Made by a program: the position numbers and the translations under genes
Source: an uncultured Actinomycetota bacterium
GTDB lineage: Bacteria > Actinomycetota > Geothermincolia > Geothermincolales > Geothermincolaceae
Direction: 5' to 3'
DNA length: 64,000 nucleotides
Assembly (NCBI GenBank): GCA_964515075.1
Contig: CAZETE010000001.1
Span: forward strand, 34,623-98,622
Part shown: in pieces, positions 12,994 to 61,356 of the stretch
Numbering within the stretch: position 1 is the stretch's first letter
Layout of the letters: each line of letters begins with the position of its first letter
Notes under the pieces: model-generated
What the model saw: only the letters and a program-made list of their open reading frames with translations
Told to the model about the DNA's origin: nothing
Databases searched by the model: none

Positions 12994-14376
12994 TTATAAC
13001 CAGATGTCAACGGCAAAGAAGAATGCCAGGGTGGAGAGGAGGAGGACGCCGGCGCTCCAGCGGTCCCAGCGGCGCAGGGGGAGGAGCGCTATGACCCAGA
13101 TGAAGTACCACGGCAGGACGTAGCTGGAGGCCAGCAGGAGGGCGAAGAGGGCCCAGAACCAGGTCTTTCCCATATCCCCATCGTCGCGGTAGGTCAGCAG
13201 CAGGCGGTAGAGGACCAGCAGGAGCAGGCACGCCAGCAGGACCGAGGCCAGCGCCCCCCCCAGCGCGGCGGCGGCCCCTTGCGGCAGCATCAGCAGGCGC
13301 AGCAGGCGGCCGAGGGCCCCTTTCAGGTAAAAACCGACGCTGGTGACGTTGGAGATGCGCAGGTTTGCAAGTACGGGCTTGATGATGCCGGGGCCGTCCA
13401 GGTACGGCAGGTAGAGCCCGCCCACGATAAGGGCGGCGGCCGCGGCATAGGCCAGGGCGGTCTTGACCCGTTGGGAGGGCAGGGGCCGGCGGCGCAGGAT
13501 GACGGCCACCGTCATCAGGGTGGGGATGAGCGTGACGTATTTGACGCAGCAGGAGAGGAGCAGGAGGGCTACGCAGTCGAAGTGCCTCTCGCGCTGATAG
13601 CGGTCGAGGGCCAGCAGGGCCAGGGTCATCATCAGCACGTCGACGTGGGCGCCGCCGGCGGAGTGCAGGATGACCAGCGGGTTGAGGCCGTAGACCATGG
13701 CGGCGAAATCCCGGTCGACCCCGTCGGTCCGCGCGGCGACGCGCCACACCAGCCTGATGTTGGCCAGGTGGCAGGCCGCCATGACCGCCTTCAGGAAGAG
13801 GGCGTTGGCGGTGATGTTCCCGCCCCAGAGCAGGTAGCTGAGGCTGCAGAGCATGCCCGACGCGGGGCCGTAGACCATCGCGGTGTTCTTCCAGTTGGGG
13901 GAGATCAGCGCGAGCAGCGGGTCGCCGATGAGGTGCTGGGGGCTGGTAAGGTAGGGGTTGAGGCCGTAGTGGGACTCCATCTTCCCGTAAAGGATCATGG
14001 AGTAGACGTCGCGCGAGAGGATGGGGGGCGCGAGCACCAGGACGGCGGAACATGCCCCCGCGACCAGCAGGACCGTGCGCACGTCGAGGGAGGAACCCTG
14101 CTTGCGGGACAGGTACAGGGCGGCGAAATAGAGCAGGATTAGGAGGAGGAAGGTGGTCAGGGCGAGGGAGTAGAGCTTGGTGAGGTTGCGGGAGGAGAGG
14201 CCCAGGGCGTCGACGGCCGCGCGCACGGCCCCGTTGCGGTAGAGGGATATCTGGGCCGGTGAGAGCTTGCCCACCGCCGGGGTGGGTGAGAGGGCCTGCA
14301 GGCCGCAGAAGAGATAGAGGAGAAGGGTGGCTGCCAGCAGCAGGTTGACGGTCATTCCCTCGCGACGGGCCACCAA
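12994..14376 (-). CDS. GT-C glycosyltransferase family 87 / DUF2029 integral membrane protein (PimE-like mannosyltransferase family)
   Basis: About 11 TM helices with a GT87/DUF2029-like hydropathy pattern. GTG start with RBS GGAGGAG. Confidence 0.6.
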   Translation of the reverse strand: MVARREGMTVNLLLAATLLLYLFCGLQALSPTPAVGKLSPAQISLYRNGAVRAAVDALGLSSRNLTKLYSLALTTFLLLILLYFAALYLSRKQGSSLDVRTVLLVAGACSAVLVLAPPILSRDVYSMILYGKMESHYGLNPYLTSPQHLIGDPLLALISPNWKNTAMVYGPASGMLCSLSYLLWGGNITANALFLKAVMAACHLANIRLVWRVAARTDGVDRDFAAMVYGLNPLVILHSAGGAHVDVLMMTLALLALDRYQRERHFDCVALLLLSCCVKYVTLIPTLMTVAVILRRRPLPSQRVKTALAYAAAAALIVGGLYLPYLDGPGIIKPVLANLRISNVTSVGFYLKGALGRLLRLLMLPQGAAAALGGALASVLLACLLLLVLYRLLLTYRDDGDMGKTWFWALFALLLASSYVLPWYFIWVIALLPLRRWDRWSAGVLLLSTLAFFFAVDIWL

Positions 14377-14465: not shown

Positions 14466-16367
14466 ATGAAGAAGATATCGCTGGACGCCGTCAAGGGGCC
14501 CGGGGACCTCAAGGGCCTCTCCTACGACGAGCTGGCGGAACTGGCGGAGCAGATCCGCAGGCGCATCGTCGAGGTGACCTCGGTGCGCGGCGGCCACCTG
14601 GCTCCCAGCCTGGGGACGGTGGAGTTGACCATAGCCCTGCACCGGGTCTACGATGCCCCGCGCGACAAGATAGTCTGGGACGTCAGCCACCAGGCCTACG
14701 CGCACAAGCTCCTCACCGGCAGGAACGCGTGCTTCGACACCCTGCGCACGCGCGACGGGGTCTGCGGCTTCACCCGGCGCTCCGAGAGCCCCTACGACTG
14801 CGTGGACGCCGGCCACGCCTCCACCTCCATCAGCTACGCCCTGGCCTTCGCCCTGGCCCGCGACCTGAAAGGGGACGATTACGAGGTGGCGGCGGTCATC
14901 GGCGACGGGGCTATCTCCGGGGGGCTGGCCTTCGAGGGGCTGAACCAGGTCGGTCACCTGAAGCCGCGCATGACCATAGTCTTGAACGATAACGGCATGT
15001 CCATATCCAACAACGTGGGAGCCCTCTCCGGCTACCTGACGCAGCTGCGGCTCAACCCGCACTACGTCCACCTCAAGCGGGACATCAAGGGCGTCCTGGA
15101 CGTCGTGCCGGTCATCGGGGAGAGGGCCGGGCGGCTGCTGCGCGAGGTGAAGGGCCGCCTGAAGAACTTCCTCATAACCGAGTACATCTTCGAGGAGCTG
15201 GGCATCATGTACGTGGGGCCCATCGACGGCCACGATATCGAGGCCTTGGAGCGCGACCTGGAGCTGGCCCGGGAGGTGGAAGGCCCGGTACTGCTGCACG
15301 TCATCACGGAGAAGGGGCGCGGCTACCGGCCGGCCGAGAAGGAGCCCGAGGCCTTCCACGGGACGCCGCCCTTCATCATCACCAACGGCAAGGTGGAGGC
15401 GAAGGAGGTGCCCTCCTTCACCGAGACCCTGGGCCGCACGGTATGCAATATCGCCCGTAAGAACCGCCGGCTGGTGGCGATCACCGCGGCGATGACCCTG
15501 GGCACCGGCCTCAAACGCTTCTCCGAGCTCTATCCCGACCGCTTCTTCGACGTGGGCATCGCCGAGCAGCACGCCGTGACCATGGCGGCCGGCCTGGCCC
15601 TCGCCGGCTTCAGGCCGCTGGTGGCCATCTACTCCACCTTCCTGCAGCGGGCTTACGACCAGGTGGTGCAGGAGGTATGCCTGCAGGGCCTACCGGTGGT
15701 CTTCGCCGTCGACCGGGCGGGCCTGGTGGGGGAGGACGGGCCCACCCATCACGGCTCCTTCGACCTCTCCTACCTCAAGCCCGTGCCCAACCTGACCATC
15801 ATGGCCCCGCGCGACCAGGAGGAACTGCGGGACATGCTCTGGCACGCCATGAGCCTGGAATGCCCGGTGGCCATCCGCTATCCCCGGGGAACCGGAGCCT
15901 CGCAGCGGGTGGAGGACGAGCCCCGCGAGCTGGCGCCGGGCAAGGTCGAGGTGGTGGAGGAGGGCGCGCGGGCCTGCCTGGTGGGCGTGGGCTCGGCCTT
16001 CGGTTATGCGGCCGCCGCCGCCTCGCTGCTCGAGACACGGGCCGGGATCAAGCCCACCCTGGTCAACGCGCGTTTCGTCAAGCCGTGCGACCGCGAGTCC
16101 CTCTGCCGGCTGGCCGGCCGCCACGAGCTGGTGGCCACGGTGGAGGACAACGCCCTGGCGGGGGGGTTCGGGGAGGACGTGGCCGCGCTGGTTTCCGAGG
16201 TGGGCGCGGGCTGCGCCGTCCTCCGTTTCGGGCTGCCCGACCGCTTCATCGAGCACGGGAGGATCGGGGAACTCCACCGCGAAGTGGGGCTGGACGGCGA
16301 GGGTATCGCCTCCCGGATGCTTGAGGCGCTGGCCCGGGGGGCAGCGGGCGGGGAAACGGAGCGGTGA
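14466..16367 (+). CDS. dxs: 1-deoxy-D-xylulose-5-phosphate synthase
   Basis: Full-length Dxs (633 aa). TPP-binding motifs GHLAPSLG and GDGAISGG, and a transketolase-like C-terminus. Confidence 0.95.
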   Translation: MKKISLDAVKGPGDLKGLSYDELAELAEQIRRRIVEVTSVRGGHLAPSLGTVELTIALHRVYDAPRDKIVWDVSHQAYAHKLLTGRNACFDTLRTRDGVCGFTRRSESPYDCVDAGHASTSISYALAFALARDLKGDDYEVAAVIGDGAISGGLAFEGLNQVGHLKPRMTIVLNDNGMSISNNVGALSGYLTQLRLNPHYVHLKRDIKGVLDVVPVIGERAGRLLREVKGRLKNFLITEYIFEELGIMYVGPIDGHDIEALERDLELAREVEGPVLLHVITEKGRGYRPAEKEPEAFHGTPPFIITNGKVEAKEVPSFTETLGRTVCNIARKNRRLVAITAAMTLGTGLKRFSELYPDRFFDVGIAEQHAVTMAAGLALAGFRPLVAIYSTFLQRAYDQVVQEVCLQGLPVVFAVDRAGLVGEDGPTHHGSFDLSYLKPVPNLTIMAPRDQEELRDMLWHAMSLECPVAIRYPRGTGASQRVEDEPRELAPGKVEVVEEGARACLVGVGSAFGYAAAAASLLETRAGIKPTLVNARFVKPCDRESLCRLAGRHELVATVEDNALAGGFGEDVAALVSEVGAGCAVLRFGLPDRFIEHGRIGELHREVGLDGEGIASRMLEALARGAAGGETER

Positions 16368-17141
16368 GGCTGGACCAGTACCTGGTGGAACAAGGTTTCT
16401 ACGCCACCCGCGAGCAGGCCAAGCGGGCCGTGCTGGCCGGTGAAGTGGAGCTGAAAGGACGCAGCGGGCGTCCCAAGCCGGGGGAGAGGGTGGAGAGGGA
16501 CCCCCCGCAGGTGACCATCCGCGAGCCCCCCCCCTTACGTCTCCCGCTCGGGCGCCAAGCTGGCGGGCGCGCTGGAGGGATGGGGCCTCGAGGTGAAGGG
16601 CTTGAAGGTCCTCGACGTCGGCTCCTCCACCGGCGGCTTCACCGACTGCCTGCTGCAGAAGGGGGCGGCGGAGGTCATCGCCCTGGACGTGGGGAGGGGG
16701 CAGCTGCACTGGAGGCTCAGGATGGACCCCCGGGTGAGGGTGATGGAGGGGGTGAACGCCCGCTACCTGGCCCCGGGCGACCTGCCCTTCCGCCCGGAGA
16801 TGGCCGTCGTCGACGTCTCCTTCATCTCCCTGATCAAGGTGCTCAAGCCCCTGGCCGGGGTGCTGGAAGAGGGAGAGAGGGTGCTGGCGCTGGTCAAGCC
16901 GCAGTTCGAGGCGGGGCGCGAGCGGGTGGGCCGGGGCGGGGTGGTGCGCGACCCGGAAGTCCACCTCCAGGTGTTGGAGCGGACCGCGGCGGCGGCGCGG
17001 GAGTTGGGTTTCCACGCCCACGGGGTCATGGAGGCCTCCCCCCGCGGGCGCGACGGCAACCGCGAGTTCGTGCTGCTGCTGGTCAAAGGGCTGGAGCCGG
17101 AGAGCGCGCCGGACTTCGGGGGCGTTACGGGAAAGGAGTGA
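16364..17141 (+). pseudogene. tlyA: TlyA-family 16S/23S rRNA (cytidine-2'-O)-methyltransferase, interrupted by a +1 frameshift in a C9 homopolymer
   Basis: The S4 domain (MRLDQYLVEQGFYATREQAKRAV...VTIREPPP) is in frame 2 up to the C-run at 16526-16534. The remainder (YVSRSGAKLAGALEGW...FtsJ-like MTase...LLLVKGL) is in frame 3 and ends TGA 17139-17141. With 8 C's instead of 9 the reading would be continuous (EPPPYVSR). Confidence 0.8.
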
Positions 17142-17145
17142 GCTG

Positions 17146-17997
17146 ATGCGCGCGGTGGGGTTGCTGCCCAACGTCAACAAGGAAGCCTGCGTGCGCGGGG
17201 CGGCGGAGCTCTCCGCGTGGCTGCGCCGCCGCGGCCTGGAGGTCAGGTTCCTGGAGGAGGACAGCGCGGCCCTGGGGGTCCGGGAAGGGGCCTGCGCTCG
17301 CGAGGAGTTCGCCCGCGGCCTGGACCTCATCGTATCGCTGGGCGGAGACGGCACGGTGCTGCGGGCGGCCCAGCTGGCCTTCCGGCCGGAGGTGCCGCTG
17401 CTCGGGATCAACCTGGGCAAGCTCGGCTTCCTCACCGGCCTGGACCAGGACAACCTCTACGAGGGCATGGAGGAGGTCATCGCCGGCCGCTTCATCGTCC
17501 AGCGGAGGAAGATGCTGGAGTGCCGGGCGCAGGGGGCGGGAGAGGAGCGCAGCTTCTTCGCCCTGAACGAGGTGGTGGTGGGGCGGACCTCCAGGCAGCG
17601 CATGATCCGCTTCGAGGCCTACATCAACCAGCAGTATTTCAACTACTATTCGGGAGACGGGCTGATCTTCGCCACCCCCACCGGCTCCACCGCCTACTCG
17701 CTGGCGGCGGGAGGCCCGGTGGTGGAGCCCAACATAGGCTGCTTCATCCTCACCCCCATCTGTTCCCACAGCCTCACCGCCCGGTCCATCGTGCTCTCGC
17801 AGGCAGACGCCGTCCTGATAACGCCGGCCGATCCGGGCAGCGCGTTCTCCCTCTCCATCGACGGCATAGAGGAGGTGATCCTCGATCCGGGAAGCGAGGT
17901 GCACCTGGCCCTCTCCCGCCACGTGAAGCTGGTCAAGCTGCCGTCATACTCCTTCTTCCGGCTCATACGCGAGAAGTTCAAGTTCCCGGAGGGCTGA
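17146..17997 (+). CDS. nadK: NAD(+) kinase
   Basis: GGDGT motif (SLGGDGTVL) and an NADK C-terminal domain. Conserved tlyA-nadK-recN order. Confidence 0.9.
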   Translation: MRAVGLLPNVNKEACVRGAAELSAWLRRRGLEVRFLEEDSAALGVREGACAREEFARGLDLIVSLGGDGTVLRAAQLAFRPEVPLLGINLGKLGFLTGLDQDNLYEGMEEVIAGRFIVQRRKMLECRAQGAGEERSFFALNEVVVGRTSRQRMIRFEAYINQQYFNYYSGDGLIFATPTGSTAYSLAAGGPVVEPNIGCFILTPICSHSLTARSIVLSQADAVLITPADPGSAFSLSIDGIEEVILDPGSEVHLALSRHVKLVKLPSYSFFRLIREKFKFPEG

Positions 17998-18000
17998 AGG

Positions 18001-19755
18001 GTGATCAAGGCGCTCACCATCCGCAACCTGGCCCTCATCGACGAGGTGAGCGTGGATTTCGCGGCGGGCTTCAACGCCTTCACCGGGGAGACCGGCGCGG
18101 GCAAGACCATCATCATCACAGGGCTCGACCTGCTGGCCGGCGCGCGCGCCGACTCCGGGCGCGTCCGCGCGGGGGAGGAGCGGCTGGAGGTGGAGGGGCT
18201 CTTCTCCTGCGACCCCCACGGCCGGGTGGCCCGGCTGCTCGAGGAATCGGGGCTGGAGGGCGGAGGCGAGGCGGGCGAGGTGGTGGTGCGGCGGGTCATC
18301 TCCCGCGAGGGCAGGAACCGCTGCTGGGTCAACGGCAGGATGTGCCCGGCCTCCGTCCTGACGGAGCTGGGGGAGTTCCTGGTGGACATCCACGGGCAGC
18401 ACGAGCATCAGCGCCTCCTCGATCCCCGCAACCACCTGGAGTACCTCGACCGCTTCGGGGGCGACGGCCACCTGGAGCTCGTAGCGCGCTATCGCGAGGC
18501 CTATTCCGCCTGGCGGGAGGCCCGCGGGAGGGCCGAGGGGGCGCGCATGGACGAGGCCGAAAGGCTTCAGCAGGTGGACATCCTGCGCCATCAGACCCGG
18601 GAGATCGAGATGGTCGACCCGGCGGAGGGGGAACTGGAGGGGCTGGAGGAGCGGCGGCGCCTGATGCAGAACGCCGAGTTCCTCTACTCGCAGGCCGGGG
18701 AGGCGCGCGCGGCGCTGTGCGGCGAGGGCCCGGACGGCACGGATGCCCTGGCCGCGGCCGTCTCCGCGCTGGCCAGGGTGGAGGGGATCGACCCGCGGCT
18801 GGGACGGCTGCGCGAGGAGCTCGAAGACGCGGCGGCGCGGGTGGACGAAGTGGCTCGCGAGCTGCGGGGATACCTGGAGGGGCTGCAGTTCGAGCCGGCC
18901 GCCCTGGAGGAGGCGGAACGGAGGATCTTCGACCTGAAGGACCTCATGCGCAAGTACGGCCCTTCCCTCGAGGAGGTCAGGGCCTTCGCCGCGAGGGCCG
19001 CCGAGCGCCTGCGCGTGCTGGAGGACTACGAGGCCGGCCTGGCGAGGCTGGAGGCGGCGGCGGTGGAGAAGGAGGAGGAGGCGGCGGCGCTGGCGGCGGA
19101 GTTGAGCGCGGCCAGGCGCGAACTGGCCGTCCGGCTGAGCGGAGCGGCCGCCGCCGAACTGGCCGGGCTGGGGATGGAGGCGGTGAGGTTCGCCGTCGAG
19201 ATGGGGGAGCGGGAGGTCCCCGGGGAGTCCGGGGGCGACTCGGTGGAGTTCACCATCTCCCCGGGGCGGGGCGAGCCCGCGCGTCCCGTCGCCAGGATCG
19301 CCTCGGGCGGAGAGCTGGCCCGGGTGATGCTGGCCCTGAAGATCGTCCTGGCCCGCGCCGACGAGGTTGACGTGCTGGTCTTCGACGAGGCGGATGCGGG
19401 GATCGGAGGGCTGACGGCCGGGCGCGTCGGTGAGAAGATGGCGCAGCTGGCCGGCTGCCATCAGATCATCACGGTGACCCACCTGCCCCAGATAGCCGCC
19501 TGCGCCGACGCGCAGTTCCGCATCTTAAAAGGGGAGAAGGGGGGCCGTCCGGTAACGCGCATCAAGAGGCTGGATGCCCGGGGACGCCGCGAGGAGCTGG
19601 CCCGCATGCTGGGGGGGGCCGGGGAGTCGGCGCTGCGCCACGCCGACGAACTGCTGAAGGCGGCGGCTTCCGGTGGCGAGGCCGGAAGCGGGCCGGCGGA
19701 GGGCCGCCGCGGGAAACGGCCGCAGGGAGCCCCGGGCACTCTACCGGGTATCTGA
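18001..19755 (+). CDS. recN: DNA repair protein RecN
   Basis: GTG start. SMC-like N-terminal Walker A GETGAGKT, a long coiled-coil, and a C-terminal signature/Walker B (DEADAGIGG). Confidence 0.9.
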   Translation: MIKALTIRNLALIDEVSVDFAAGFNAFTGETGAGKTIIITGLDLLAGARADSGRVRAGEERLEVEGLFSCDPHGRVARLLEESGLEGGGEAGEVVVRRVISREGRNRCWVNGRMCPASVLTELGEFLVDIHGQHEHQRLLDPRNHLEYLDRFGGDGHLELVARYREAYSAWREARGRAEGARMDEAERLQQVDILRHQTREIEMVDPAEGELEGLEERRRLMQNAEFLYSQAGEARAALCGEGPDGTDALAAAVSALARVEGIDPRLGRLREELEDAAARVDEVARELRGYLEGLQFEPAALEEAERRIFDLKDLMRKYGPSLEEVRAFAARAAERLRVLEDYEAGLARLEAAAVEKEEEAAALAAELSAARRELAVRLSGAAAAELAGLGMEAVRFAVEMGEREVPGESGGDSVEFTISPGRGEPARPVARIASGGELARVMLALKIVLARADEVDVLVFDEADAGIGGLTAGRVGEKMAQLAGCHQIITVTHLPQIAACADAQFRILKGEKGGRPVTRIKRLDARGRREELARMLGGAGESALRHADELLKAAASGGEAGSGPAEGRRGKRPQGAPGTLPGI

Positions 19756-19794
19756 GGGCGGACCGCGGCCGCGGCGGTTGTCGTGGGCGGCGCC

Positions 19795-19800
19795 TATAAT
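19795..19800 (+). promoter_or_regulatory. perfect TATAAT -10 hexamer in the recN-pyrG spacer; candidate pyrG promoter with a ~190-nt leader
   Basis: TATAAT at 19795-19800; the upstream TTGTCG is not at optimal spacing. The leader contains an 8-bp inverted repeat GGCCGGGA...TCCCGGCC enclosing a pyrimidine tract CTCTCTCTACTTTTTTT. Confidence 0.3.
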
Positions 19801-19993
19801 GCAGTCCTGACGGAGCCATTGAAGCGAGGGCCGCAAAGGACTATGCTATGTTAAAACGAGTGGAGAGAATGGCGGCAACAAGCGGAACGCCGGAAGGGCA
19901 AGGCGGGCACGGGAGTATCCCTCGGCCGGGAGGGATGCTCTCTCTACTTTTTTTCGGACGGAGGCGTCCCGGCCTATACGGGGGAGGTAGAGC

Positions 19994-21661
19994 ATGGCGG
20001 TGAAGTACATCTTCGTGACCGGCGGGGTGCTCTCATCCCTGGGAAAGGGCATCACCGCGGCCTCCCTGGGACGGCTGCTCAAGTCCCGGGGCCTCAAGGT
20101 GACCATGCAGAAGATGGACCCCTACATCAACGTCGACCCCGGGACCATGAACCCCTTCCAGCACGGCGAGGTCTTCGTCACCGACGACGGCACCGAGGCC
20201 GACCTCGACCTCGGCCATTACGAGCGCTTCATCGACGAGCACCTGGGCAGGGAGAACAACGTGACCACCGGCAGCGTCTACTGGTCCATCATCGCCCGCG
20301 AACGCAAGGGCGAGTTCCTGGGCGGCACGGTGCAGGTCATACCCCACGTGACCAACGAGATCAAGGACCGCATCCTGCGGCTGGCGCGGTCCAGCGAGGT
20401 GGACGTGGTCATCACGGAGATCGGCGGGACCGTCGGCGACATCGAGAGCCTGCCCTTCCTCGAGGCCATCCGGCAGCTCAAGAAGGACGTGGGCCCGGAG
20501 AACGTCATGTACATCCACGTCAGCCTGGTGCCCTTCGTGGGCCCGACGGAGGAGCTCAAGACCAAGCCCACCCAGCACAGCGTGAAGGAGCTGCGCTCCA
20601 TCGGCATCCAGCCCGACGTCATCGTCTGCCGCTCCAGCCGGCCCATCACCCACAACCTCAAGGAGAAGATCTCCCTCCACTGCGACATCGACTTGGAGGC
20701 GGTGGTCACCGCGGTGGACGTGGACTGCATCTATGAGATGCCGTTGATCCTGCAGAGGGAGGGGCTGGGGGATTACCTGGTCAGGCACCTCGGCCTGGAC
20801 CACACGGTGGAGGACCTGAGCGAGTGGGAGGAACTGGTTCGGCGCATCCGGGAGTCCACCGAGGAGGTGTGCATCGGGGTGGTGGGCAAGTACGTGGACT
20901 TGAAGGACGCCTACCTGTCCATCATCGAGGGCCTCAAGCACGGCGGCTACGCCCACGGGGCATGCGTGAAGATCCGCTGGATGACCTCCGACGACATCAA
21001 CCCGGACAGCGCGGGCGAGAGCCTGGAGGGTCTGCACGGCATCCTCGTGCCCGGCGGGTTCGGGGAGCGCGGCGTGGACGGCAAGGTGGAGGCCATCCGC
21101 TACGCGCGCGAGGAGCGGGTGCCCTTTCTGGGGATCTGCCTGGGCCTGCAGTGCGCGGTCATCGAGGCCAGCCGCAACCTCTGCGGGCTGAAGGGGGCCA
21201 ACAGCTCCGAGTTCGATCCCCACACCGAACACCCCACCATCGACCTGCTGCCCAGCCAGAGGGAGATCGACGAGATGGGCGGAACCATGCGCCTGGGCCT
21301 TTATCCCTGCAAGATCCAGGAGGGGACCCTGGCCCACGCCCTCTACCGGGAGGAGATCATCTACGAACGGCACCGCCACCGCTACGAAGTCAACAACCAC
21401 TACCGCACGGCCCTGCAGGGGGCCGGGATGATCTTCTCCGGCCAGTCCCCGGACGAGAAGCTGGTGGAGATAATCGAGCGCGCCGACCACCCCTGGTTCA
21501 TCGCCGGCCAGTTCCACCCCGAGTTCAAGTCGCGCCCCAACCGCCCCCACCCCCTCTTCCGCGGCTTCATCGGGGCGGCGCTGGAGCGGAAGAGGCTGCT
21601 CGAGGGGGGCGGCGTTAAGGCGGAGGGGAAGGCCGGCGACGCCGCCCGGCCCTCCTTTTGA
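19994..21661 (+). CDS. pyrG: CTP synthase
   Basis: Full-length PyrG. The N-terminal synthetase domain begins KYIFVTGGV; the C-terminal glutamine amidotransferase carries GICLGLQ. Confidence 0.95.
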
Positions 21662-54306: not shown

Positions 54307-55047
54307 CTAGAACAGCGGCCTGTAATCGAGCTGCTTCAAGTAGGGCTTGACCCGGTTCTTCAGCAGCAGGTCCTTGAGCTCCCGGCTGAGGCTGGTCAGC
54401 TGGATGAGGTTCTCCACGGCCGCCCGCCTGGCCTCCGGGTCCTTCTGGCGCAGCAGCGGGTAGATGATCCCCTCCAGGAACTCATCCTCCTTGTCCGTCA
54501 GGTTCTTGTACATCTTGAGGTGGCGGGGCTCGATGCCGTAGCGGAGGAAGTCGTTGGCCAGCCGGATGATCTTGACGTCCTCCTTCTCGTAGTACTCGCC
54601 GTCCTCCCCCTGGTGGGAACAGATCAGCCGGTACTCCTCGAGTTCCGTGGCGAAGGAGGCGGGGACGTTGAGCGCTTCCTCCAGGTCCGCCTTGAGCACC
54701 ACGGTCTCGTCGGTCATCTCGTCCTCCCGCAGCAGGGGGGCGTCATCGAGGTAGCCGGCGGAGAGGTCGGACGCCTTGATGCGGCCGCTCTCTATCTCCT
54801 TGAGCTTCTCCTTGATGACCTTCAAGGGGAGGTAGCGCTCCTTCTGCAGGCGGAGGATGAAACGGAGGCGCTGCTCGTCCGACCTGGAGTACTTGCGGTA
54901 GCCGCTGGGCGTCCGTTCCGGCTGCAGCAGCCCCTCCGTCTCCAGGAAGCGGATCTTGGAGATGGTCAGGTCGGGAAACTCGCCGTTGAGCGACTTGAGG
55001 AGCTCCCCGATGCTGACCAGGTCCTTGCGCTTTTCCGTTTCCGCCAT
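54307..55047 (-). CDS. MerR family transcriptional regulator
   Basis: N-terminal MerR HTH (VSIGELLKSLNGEFPDLTISKIRFLETEGLL). Positional equivalent of M. tuberculosis Rv1828, next to the FHA protein. Confidence 0.8.
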   Translation of the reverse strand: MAETEKRKDLVSIGELLKSLNGEFPDLTISKIRFLETEGLLQPERTPSGYRKYSRSDEQRLRFILRLQKERYLPLKVIKEKLKEIESGRIKASDLSAGYLDDAPLLREDEMTDETVVLKADLEEALNVPASFATELEEYRLICSHQGEDGEYYEKEDVKIIRLANDFLRYGIEPRHLKMYKNLTDKEDEFLEGIIYPLLRQKDPEARRAAVENLIQLTSLSRELKDLLLKNRVKPYLKQLDYRPLF

Positions 55048-55049
55048 GG

Positions 55050-55526
55050 CTACCCCTTCGCGCCGCCCTGGAAGAAGAGCATGCGGAACTTGCCGATCTG
55101 GACCTCGTCGCCGTTCTTCAACGACGACCTGTCGATTCGCTCCTTGTTGACGTAGGTGCCGTTGAGCGAGCCGATGTCCACGATCTCGTATCCCCGGTCG
55201 GTCAGGCGGATCTCGGCGTGGCGGCGCGACACGGTGATGTCGTCCAAGAAGATGTCGCTCTCGGGATGGCGGCCGGCCGTGGTGACGTCCTTGGCGACCT
55301 GGAAGCGGGCACCGGCATCCGGGCCTTTCTTGATGATCAGCACCACTTCGCCGGAACGCAGCGAGGCGGAGGGGGGGGTGATCTCGATCTCGTCCCCGCC
55401 CTCAACCTCAATCACAGGTAAACCCGTGGTCGGGTCCAGGGGACCTCCGGAGCCCTGCGCGGAGCCGCAGACATTGCAGTACCTGCTCTCTGCAGTCAGT
55501 TGCGCACCGCACCTTTCGCACTTCAT
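55050..55526 (-). CDS. FHA domain-containing protein with N-terminal zinc ribbon (GarA/OdhI-like)
   Basis: CxxC...CxxC at the N-terminus. FHA core GRHPESDIFLDDITVSRRHAEI...GSLNGTYVN. Confidence 0.8.
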   Translation of the reverse strand: MKCERCGAQLTAESRYCNVCGSAQGSGGPLDPTTGLPVIEVEGGDEIEITPPSASLRSGEVVLIIKKGPDAGARFQVAKDVTTAGRHPESDIFLDDITVSRRHAEIRLTDRGYEIVDIGSLNGTYVNKERIDRSSLKNGDEVQIGKFRMLFFQGGAKG

Positions 55527-55652
55527 ACGGCTAACCCCCGTAAATCGTCCGGTACCGTTGGCCTTTCCGGCCGTCCTAAAACATTATAACAGCAAGTCCG
55601 CGTAGTTGAAGGGGCCCTCGAGACCGTAAGCCGCAGCCGCTTGGCGGCGGGG

Positions 55653-55931
55653 TCAGAAGGCCTCCCCGTCCTCAACCTTACCTGAAAGGACGGCCGAAAG
55701 CCTCAAGATGTCCTCCTCCGAGAAGAGTGAATCGCCGCCGCGCAGCCTCTCCTTCTTGCGCTTGACGATCTCGGCGCGGAGTATGTCTATCTTGCCGTGC
55801 AGGATGCGCCGGCGGTAAGAGATCTCCCTCTCCTCGCGCAGCATGGTGTTGAGGATCTCCTTCAATTCCTCGTCGGACCTCTTCTCGAAATCGATGAAGA
55901 TGTCCGCGGCGCTCGAATCATGCGAATCCAT
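55653..55931 (-). CDS. hypothetical small protein (92 aa, acidic N-terminus, basic helical C-terminus)
   Basis: ATG after GGGGAGGAG. No recognised domain. Confidence 0.45.
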   Translation of the reverse strand: MDSHDSSAADIFIDFEKRSDEELKEILNTMLREEREISYRRRILHGKIDILRAEIVKRKKERLRGGDSLFSEEDILRLSAVLSGKVEDGEAF

Positions 55932-55995
55932 CAAGCTCCTCCCCTCGCCTGTCGCCTTCAAACATTCTAGCACAGACGTCGGGCGAAGTAACGGG

Positions 55996-56811
55996 TCAGT
56001 GGAGTTGCGACCATGCGGTAGAGGTATAGGCTTGCAGCAGCGAGTCGGCGGCGGCCCTCTCGGCCCCGGTAAGCTCGCCCGGCACCAGCCGGACGCGGAA
56101 CTCGGACTCAAAGCCGTGCCTGAAAGCAAGCGCTATCTCGTCCCAGGAGGCGCCGACGGTCAGCTCTTCCAGGCAGGTGCAGGCGCGTGCGTATTCTCTC
56201 GGCTCCTCCCCGGCCTCGTCCGCGGTGCCGGAGAGCAGGCTGAAGAGGAGGTCGCCGTGGTCCTTGAGGGGGATGGTCCCGTGCTGCAGGATGGCGCCGC
56301 CCCTGCGGGTCTGGGCGCTGCCGCAGAGCTTGCGCCCGCCCGCCTGCAGGTCGGCGGAGGCGGGCGCGGAGAAGCAGGCCCGCACGCCGGATCGCCCGCC
56401 GCCGCGCGGCACCAGTCCGGCGTCAATCCCCAGGGCCGCCAGCGCCGCGATTATCCCCCGGCAGATGAACGCGTAGGACTCCTCCACCCCCTGCGGCATC
56501 CGCGCCGAGGGTGGCAACACCAGCGAGTAAGTGAAGTCGTCCTTGTGCAGGATGGCCTTTCCCCCGGTGGGCCGGCGGACGACGTCGAACCCCCTGCGCC
56601 GGCAGGCCTCCGGATCCGCGTGGCCGGCGGGCTGAAAGCGGCCCAGGGTGAGGGCGGGAGGGTCGAAGCGGTAGAACCTCAAGGTCGGCGGGAAGCCCTC
56701 GGCGGACGCCGATTCCAGCAGGGCCTGGTCCAAGGCCATCTGGCGGAACCCGTCGGCGGCGGTGGCCGGCAGGAGCCTCCAGGCAGGCGGTCTCGAGTTC
56801 TTCCCCGGCAC
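55996..56811 (-). CDS. lipoate--protein ligase / octanoyltransferase family protein (BPL/LPL catalytic domain)
   Basis: LplA/LipM-like RFYRFDPPALTLGRFQ and a GGKAILH lysine motif. N-terminal start uncertain. Confidence 0.7.
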   Translation of the reverse strand: MPGKNSRPPAWRLLPATAADGFRQMALDQALLESASAEGFPPTLRFYRFDPPALTLGRFQPAGHADPEACRRRGFDVVRRPTGGKAILHKDDFTYSLVLPPSARMPQGVEESYAFICRGIIAALAALGIDAGLVPRGGGRSGVRACFSAPASADLQAGGRKLCGSAQTRRGGAILQHGTIPLKDHGDLLFSLLSGTADEAGEEPREYARACTCLEELTVGASWDEIALAFRHGFESEFRVRLVPGELTGAERAAADSLLQAYTSTAWSQLH

Positions 56812-61278: not shown

Positions 61279-61356
61279 TGGTCGGGACGAGAGGATTTGA
61301 ACCTCCGACCTCTGGACCCCCAGTCCAGCGCGCTAACCAAGCTGCGCTACGTCCCG
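61279..61356 (-). tRNA. tRNA-Pro (anticodon GGG), genomically encoded CCA
   Basis: Manual fold: acceptor CGGGACG/CGTCCCG; D-stem GCGC/GCGC; anticodon stem CTGGA/TCCAG with loop CTGGGGG (G37 is typical for Pro); T-arm GGAGG-TTCAAAT-CCTCT; discriminator A; CCA. Confidence 0.85.

Follow-up and report, generated by a model that had tools for sequence, protein, structure and literature searches.

The gene tlyA lies on the plus strand of the window, by which is meant the whole 64-kb stretch of DNA that was analysed (GC content 68%), between dxs on its 5' side and nadK on its 3' side, with recN following nadK. The order dxs-tlyA-nadK-recN is common to the closest relatives. The reading frame of tlyA in the window is interrupted by a run of nine C's at 16526-16534 (CGC GAG CCC CCC CCC TTA CGT), and it is uninterrupted only in a C8 allele that was found in sister samples. 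The C9 run is the longest homopolymer of the window. The features of the locus are as follows.

14466..16367, plus strand: dxs (1-deoxy-D-xylulose-5-phosphate synthase), the 5' neighbour (TIGR00204, 762 bits)
16364, plus strand: GTG start codon of tlyA, overlapping the dxs stop codon (GTGA), as read from the sequence
16364..16534, plus strand: 5' part of tlyA in frame 2 (PF01479 S4; TIGR00478 positions 1-45), ending ...IREPPP
16526..16534, plus strand: C9 homopolymer that carries the extra C (+1C); three sister read sets have C8 here
16535..16537, plus strand: TTA, the first frame-2 codon past the tract in the C9 allele (8 of 11,565 codons)
16536..17141, plus strand: 3' part of tlyA in frame 3, comprising the linker (YVSR...) and an FtsJ-like class I methyltransferase (PF01728, 133 bits; GC3 0.96)
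16538..17146, plus strand: out-of-frame frame-2 tail of a 260-aa open reading frame (ORF), rich in Arg, Gly and Pro (GC3 0.45)
16602..17141, plus strand: 179-aa ORF from a TTG, with a partial methyltransferase domain; the gene-caller product P0007, known from a protein record
17146..17997, plus strand: nadK (NAD kinase), the 3' neighbour (profile match)
18001..19755, plus strand: recN (TIGR00634, 529 bits)

From the GTG at 16364, frame 2 reads MRLDQYLVEQ...VTIREPPP (in full MRLDQYLVEQGFYATREQAKRAVLAGEVELKGRSGRPKPGERVERDPPQVTIREPPP), an S4-like domain that matches the Pfam S4 domain (PF01479). From 16536, frame 3 reads YVSRSGAKLAGALEGW..., or over a longer stretch YVSRSGAKLAGALEGWGLEVKGLKVLDVGSSTGGFTDCLL..., and continues to the TGA at 17139-17141, with a match of 133 bits to Pfam FtsJ (PF01728), the FtsJ-like methyltransferase domain. 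The codon-position GC 3' of the tract follows the same division, the GC3 being 0.96 for frame 3 and 0.45 for frame 2. The open stretch of frame 3 begins at 16515, and the switch of frame can therefore lie nowhere but within 16515-16535, i.e. at the tract. This exact coincidence of the homology-defined frame switch with the C9 tract is the non-random feature of the locus. The tract encodes PPP, in its C9 as in its C8 form, where the S4 domain meets the interdomain linker, and the TTA that follows it in the C9 allele is among the four rarest sense codons of the genes of the window (8 of 11,565 codons). No family was matched by the out-of-frame tail (16538..17146), and the displaced methyltransferase part shows no decay of its codon bias.

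With one C removed from the tract, the gene encodes 258 aa, and this protein matches TIGR00478 (TlyA family) over the full length, profile positions 1-228, with 228.4 bits (curated cut-off 185.8 bits); PF01479 occupies its residues 1-29 and PF01728 its residues 58-239. The unrepaired 260-aa frame-2 ORF scores 22.8 bits with the same model, entirely from its first 47 residues. A preliminary description of this DNA, made from the sequence alone, had named the gene tlyA and placed a +1 shift within the C9 tract, and both statements are borne out, the first by the full-length match of the repaired protein to TIGR00478 and the second by the S4 domain in frame 2, the FtsJ domain in frame 3 and the switch in GC3. 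The repaired protein shares with the TlyA family (M. tuberculosis Rv1694; C. jejuni Cj0588) the S4-like N-terminus, the aromatic-Val-Ser-Arg linker and the FtsJ-like class I methyltransferase; the locus differs from that family in that the ORF is broken by +1C at the domain boundary. Against the equivalog model NF049952, which bears on the type I/type II subtype, repaired TlyA scored 171 bits, with a cut-off of 250. TlyA enzymes of type I methylate 23S C1920 only, and those of type II both 23S C1920 and 16S C1409.

The junction of tlyA with nadK is compact. The frame-2 stop codon of the shifted ORF (TGA, 17144-17146) shares one base with the ATG of nadK (17146-17148), and an AAGGAG ribosome-binding site lies ahead of nadK at 17133-17138. 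On the minus strand, opposite dxs, tlyA and nadK, an ORF of 587 aa (15690-17453) has a weak coding signal and was rejected as a shadow ORF of high-GC DNA, of a kind that an automated caller could wrongly call.

A collection of 5.8 billion proteins was searched. It holds on record P0007 (179 aa, from TTG 16602 to 17141), which is identical to the C-terminal part of TlyA, and, in the same 90% cluster, P0121 (258 aa), which is exactly the repaired TlyA. The reading that eight C's would give an uninterrupted EPPPYVSR is therefore realised in nature, in the form of P0121. It had also been foreseen that gene callers might report a 260-aa fusion, a forecast at odds with the records, in which the sole call for the C9 allele is the 179-aa P0007 from the TTG at 16602. 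An exact look-up of the Dxs protein returned no record, a search with the N-terminal 189-residue protein for fragmentary alleles of other samples returned none closer than the known matches, and among the representatives of the genome collection the best match was a relative with 76% identity.

The tract was recovered in Logan contigs of four sequencing runs.

SRR15734599, contig L081: 4,566 nt, window 15611-20176, 0 mismatches, C9
SRR15734601, contig L083: 2,342 nt, 0 mismatches, C8
SRR15734600, contig L084: 1,753 nt, 1 mismatch, C8
SRR15734598, contig L085: 1,050 nt, 1 mismatch, C8

The C8 contigs of SRR15734601, SRR15734600 and SRR15734598 encode P0121. The mismatches in the sister contigs are 16661 G>A in tlyA and 17298 T>A in nadK, which are read as synonymous third-position changes and which, as far as contig sequences can tell, indicate strain microdiversity in those samples; L084 ends at 17297, adjoining the second of these sites. 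The four consecutively numbered runs evidently sample one strain, in which tract length would be the sole difference at the tlyA locus apart from the synonymous 16661 G>A. The preliminary description had held that tlyA would be intact if the reads supported eight C's, and eight C's are present in the assemblies of three sister runs, with nine in that of SRR15734599, the run that matches the window. Since C8 agrees with the length in all relatives, C8 is ancestral and C9 derived.

The same organism was met elsewhere at 100% DNA identity, in an unrelated NCBI metagenome (GCA_002049745.1; L094, MTKY01030979.1) and in the later run SRR31357137 (L082), and a strain of slight divergence, whose NadK (variant P0123) carries two substitutions, was met in ERZ3460579 and SRR12799670 (L090/L091). 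The contigs of the divergent strain begin 460-515 nt 5' of nadK, with the tract outside their reach, the contig of SRR31357137 begins at window 16928, and that of GCA_002049745.1 is likewise without the tlyA tract. A scan of JGI metagenomes with the two flanks and a tract of variable length between them (ACCATCCGCGAGCCCCCC N{0,8} TTACGTCTCCCGCTC) gave 0 matches, and no JGI protein exceeded 72% identity, so the species appears to be absent there. A full-text literature search on the five SRA run numbers returned no paper.

One tract was compared across runs as a control, the C8 at 55371-55378 in a gene for an FHA-domain protein, and its length does not vary among SRR15734599, SRR15734601 and GCA_002049745.1, each with 0 mismatches. 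This second C8 tract stands in the context ATC ACC CCC CCC TCC, in a minus-strand gene (55050-55526) whose 158-aa product combines a zinc-ribbon with an FHA domain and is OdhI/GarA-like. The remaining 8-mers of the window (at 13254 and 19611) and fifteen 7-mers sit within long intact ORFs; the second of these 8-mers, a G8 tract at 19611-19618, lies inside recN and leaves its frame undisturbed. A coding-frame map of the 64 kb found no change in the frame of the coding signal away from a stop codon except that in tlyA, and ten adjacent same-strand ORFs, when scanned with Pfam, gave different families with complete domains and no further split gene. The stable control tract, the lack of any other split gene and the undecayed codon bias of the displaced part of tlyA together speak against a homopolymer artefact of a general kind. 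Runs of G or C of 7, 8, and 9 or more numbered 18, 4 and 1 in the window, against 45, 15.6 and 5.4 expected from shuffles. The mere presence of a run of at least 9 is not above chance (1 observed, 5.4 expected from composition), and the depletion of long G/C runs is consistent with selection against slippage-prone runs.

The origin of the tract may be traced through its relatives. The six closest homologues (68-77% identity) read R-x-R-P-P-[FY]-V-S-R where R-E-P-P-P-Y-V-S-R is found here. The codons of the nearest relative are GAG CGC CCC CCG TTC, with a run of 6, those of other close relatives CGG CCT CCC or CGC CCG CCG, and those of the C8 allele here GAG CCC CCC CCT TAC. When the C-tract length was counted in relatives, as the preliminary description had proposed, C8 was found in the three sister runs, and among more than 80 other tlyA loci no run longer than 6 was seen at this position; where PPP is encoded at tlyA loci elsewhere, the codons are broken up by CCG. 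By this comparison the first step was a single change of CGC (Arg) to CCC, merging the adjoining C's into C8, and the second would be one replication slip from C8 to C9. To judge from these loci, the tract is a mutational hotspot that is young and confined to this lineage, and it is no conserved device. An Arg-to-Pro change that had already crippled the C8 protein was considered and rejected, since 23 of 174 homologues carry PPP[YF]VSR, in a column that varies. With PPP normal for the family, the C8 protein is predicted to be functional.

The C9 tract is probably genuine, the product of a slipped-strand event that added one C to this lineage-specific C8; C9 is the consensus in the SRR15734599 population and in the deposited bin, with C8 as the consensus in three sister samples. 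The difference in tract length between near-identical populations, the two C9 assemblies and the stable control C8 together favour a real slipped-strand indel over an assembly error. Sequencing or assembly error, pseudogenisation and phase variation had been offered earlier as explanations without ranking, and the comparison of C8 with C9 now places a slipped-strand indel, giving a fresh null allele, ahead of assembly error. On this reading the event is a commonplace slippage mutation, polymorphic within the population and with both alleles documented, and no genetic element of a new kind. Free of other lesions, with its codon bias intact and with 0 substitutions relative to the C8 allele, the C9 event is, on these signs, very recent. 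In the species, then, tlyA is intact; in this sampled population it apparently is not.

It is rather unlikely that C8 is present everywhere and that the extra C is a sequencing or consensus artefact, i.e. a homopolymer miscall or PCR slippage in the SRR15734599 library that was inherited by both assemblies. Such an artefact would account for C8 in three of the four sister runs on otherwise identical sequence, it would fall at the longest homopolymer of the window, hence its most error-prone site, and homopolymer indel calls are known as unreliable (PMC8339072). C9 does occur in two different assemblies, but the window assembly and the Logan contig L081 were possibly built from the same reads and may not be independent sequencing observations, so that their agreement rules out an assembler quirk and leaves room for an error at the level of the library. 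An artefact sits poorly, however, with the undisrupted state of the other C8, the G8 and the fifteen 7-mers, and with the equal length of the control C8 in SRR15734599 and in the other data sets. There are 0 other broken genes in the 64 kb, unlike typical error-prone long-read assemblies, and a consensus +1 error at an 8-mer would be unusual for short reads at the coverage implied by Logan contigs of 4.5-9.5 kb and a contig of 226 kb.

If the slipped-strand insertion is real, translation of the C9 allele would yield the S4 domain and then approximately 200 out-of-frame residues, ending at the nadK start codon, and the S4 domain would be parted from the linker and the methyltransferase domain. 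Ribosomes would be delivered to the nadK start much as with the intact gene. Because the out-of-frame tail is open as far as the TGA at 17144-17146, which overlaps the nadK ATG, we expect the insertion to have no polar effect on nadK or recN. TlyA of M. tuberculosis depends critically on its N-terminal domain to recognise the ribosome, and its methyltransferase domain is a poor binder of SAM when the linker (residues 60-63, including Trp62) is missing (PMC9168844); the counterpart of Trp62 here is the Tyr of YVSR. Given that the M. tuberculosis enzyme requires both its N-terminal domain and its linker, neither fragment encoded by the C9 allele should work, and by analogy the allele would be a null or a strong hypomorph with respect to 2'-O-methylation at 23S C1920 and, in the case of a type II enzyme, at 16S C1409 too.

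Loss-of-function mutations in tlyA lead to capreomycin and viomycin resistance in M. tuberculosis (Maus et al. 2005, as cited in PMC9168844), and loss of TlyA methylation is described as lowering the activity of both drugs in mycobacteria (PMC9168844 and references therein). A capreomycin or viomycin consequence in this organism would follow solely by mycobacterial analogy. The same non-essential enzyme would be inactivated in both settings, and the 2'-O-methylations on which optimal tuberactinomycin binding depends would be expected to disappear; the difference is that the lesion here is a homopolymer hotspot, in place of scattered point mutations and indels, and that it lies in an environmental organism that is uncultured and for which no drug exposure is known.

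Some full-length TlyA may plausibly still leak from the C9 allele through +1 slippage, since CCC CCC CCC is followed by the rare codon UUA. The sequence CC[C/U]-[C/U] is a known +1-slippery class on which tRNAPro slips by +1, and in E. coli CCC-C at the second codon position, beside the start codon, is reported to shift by +1 at a level of approximately 1% (PMC4519876). The locus shares with this class, known also from work on m1G37 and EF-P, CCC codons that precede a C or U, a row of three prolines and a rare codon after them, and differs in that slippage here would be the by-product of an accidental mutation instead of a conserved recoding signal, with an efficiency that is probably low. A slip of -1 in the tract would bring the gene back, so that the locus could act as a mutational on/off hotspot.

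A stronger claim, that selection keeps the C tract as a reversible switch of rRNA methylation by TlyA, with subpopulations that are resistant to ribosome-targeting peptides of the tuberactinomycin type or altered in the properties of their ribosomes, is improbable. We likewise give little credence to a newly evolved C8/C9 switch through which subpopulations would carry ribosomes without the TlyA 2'-O-methylations and would maybe be refractory to tuberactinomycin-type peptides of neighbouring actinomycetes, with +1 slippage leaving a trickle of enzyme in the OFF state. To our knowledge, no natural phase variation of an rRNA-modification enzyme has been described in an environmental community. 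What such a switch would explain is that ON (C8) and OFF (C9) forms both occur in near-identical populations, with flanks that differ by 0-1 mismatches, that the tract is of a length known to sustain phase variation in high-GC bacteria elsewhere, that the OFF state is predicted to be non-polar on nadK, and that a coding C8 is retained conspicuously where long G/C runs are depleted (1 against 5.4 expected). The tract, however, is not conserved (a run of 6 in the nearest relative and of no more than 6 at the other loci) and nothing points to its maintenance over the long term, a single switch event is seen, with no mixed alleles within a sample, reversion or selective agent in evidence, and one chance mutation that rose by drift fits the data equally well.

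Homopolymer phase variation is known from the 7C tract of M. tuberculosis glpK (10.1101/717272) and, genome-wide, from tracts of at least 7 in that organism (PMC10334774). With the glpK type the present locus has in common a coding G/C tract of at least 7, silencing by +1, the presence of both alleles in close populations and potential reversibility, and it differs in that the tract is not conserved in related species and that one switch was observed. Should mixed or alternating alleles prove true, the homopolymer on/off behaviour of M. tuberculosis would be extended to an environmental bacterium and its rRNA methyltransferase, and a link to susceptibility to peptide antibiotics could be put to the test; otherwise the case is a routine homopolymer indel.

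That C9 is instead the normal functional form, with TlyA produced through efficient programmed +1 frameshifting, or else through transcriptional slippage along the run of C's, is highly improbable, for although the CCC run, the PPP stall motif and the rare 0-frame UUA make a good +1 slippery context on paper (PMC4519876), an in-frame C8 allele exists in the same species with 100% flanking identity, 0 of more than 80 orthologous loci need a shift here, the fold of 16500-16640 (z = +0.82 against shuffles) gives no stimulatory RNA structure, no Shine-Dalgarno-like element stands at the short prfB-type spacing (the sole such element, AGGTGA, is 11-17 nt upstream), and the reported CCC-C slippage of approximately 1% is not efficient. 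The resemblance to prfB-like +1 frameshift genes, one of sequence only, lies in a slippery P-site codon followed by a slow 0-frame codon (CCC CCC CCC UUA); the conserved requirement for a shift and the stimulatory element of those genes are both absent here.

The break of tlyA in the genome bin is no basis for calling gene loss at the level of the species, an intact allele being present in sister samples. Nor should the break be silently repaired as an error, as the evidence favours a real allele. With C9 taken as a real allele, the locus is a mutational hotspot caught soon after its birth, in which one Arg-to-Pro change led to C8 and C8 to a null allele in one population.

The window also bears on the identity of the organism. 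Genes for an RsiG-like protein, the OdhI-like FHA protein and a MerR regulator of the FtsR_Actino type (208 bits, cut-off 150) lie together on the minus strand at 54307-56132, and the pair formed by the last two mirrors the arrangement of Rv1827-Rv1828. The OdhI/GarA-like FHA, FtsR_Actino and RsiG-like genes point to an affinity with the Actinomycetota, and the gene content of the window suggests an organism in or near that phylum. One tRNA gene, at 61282-61356 on the minus strand, is the only Rfam match of the window over the gathering score.
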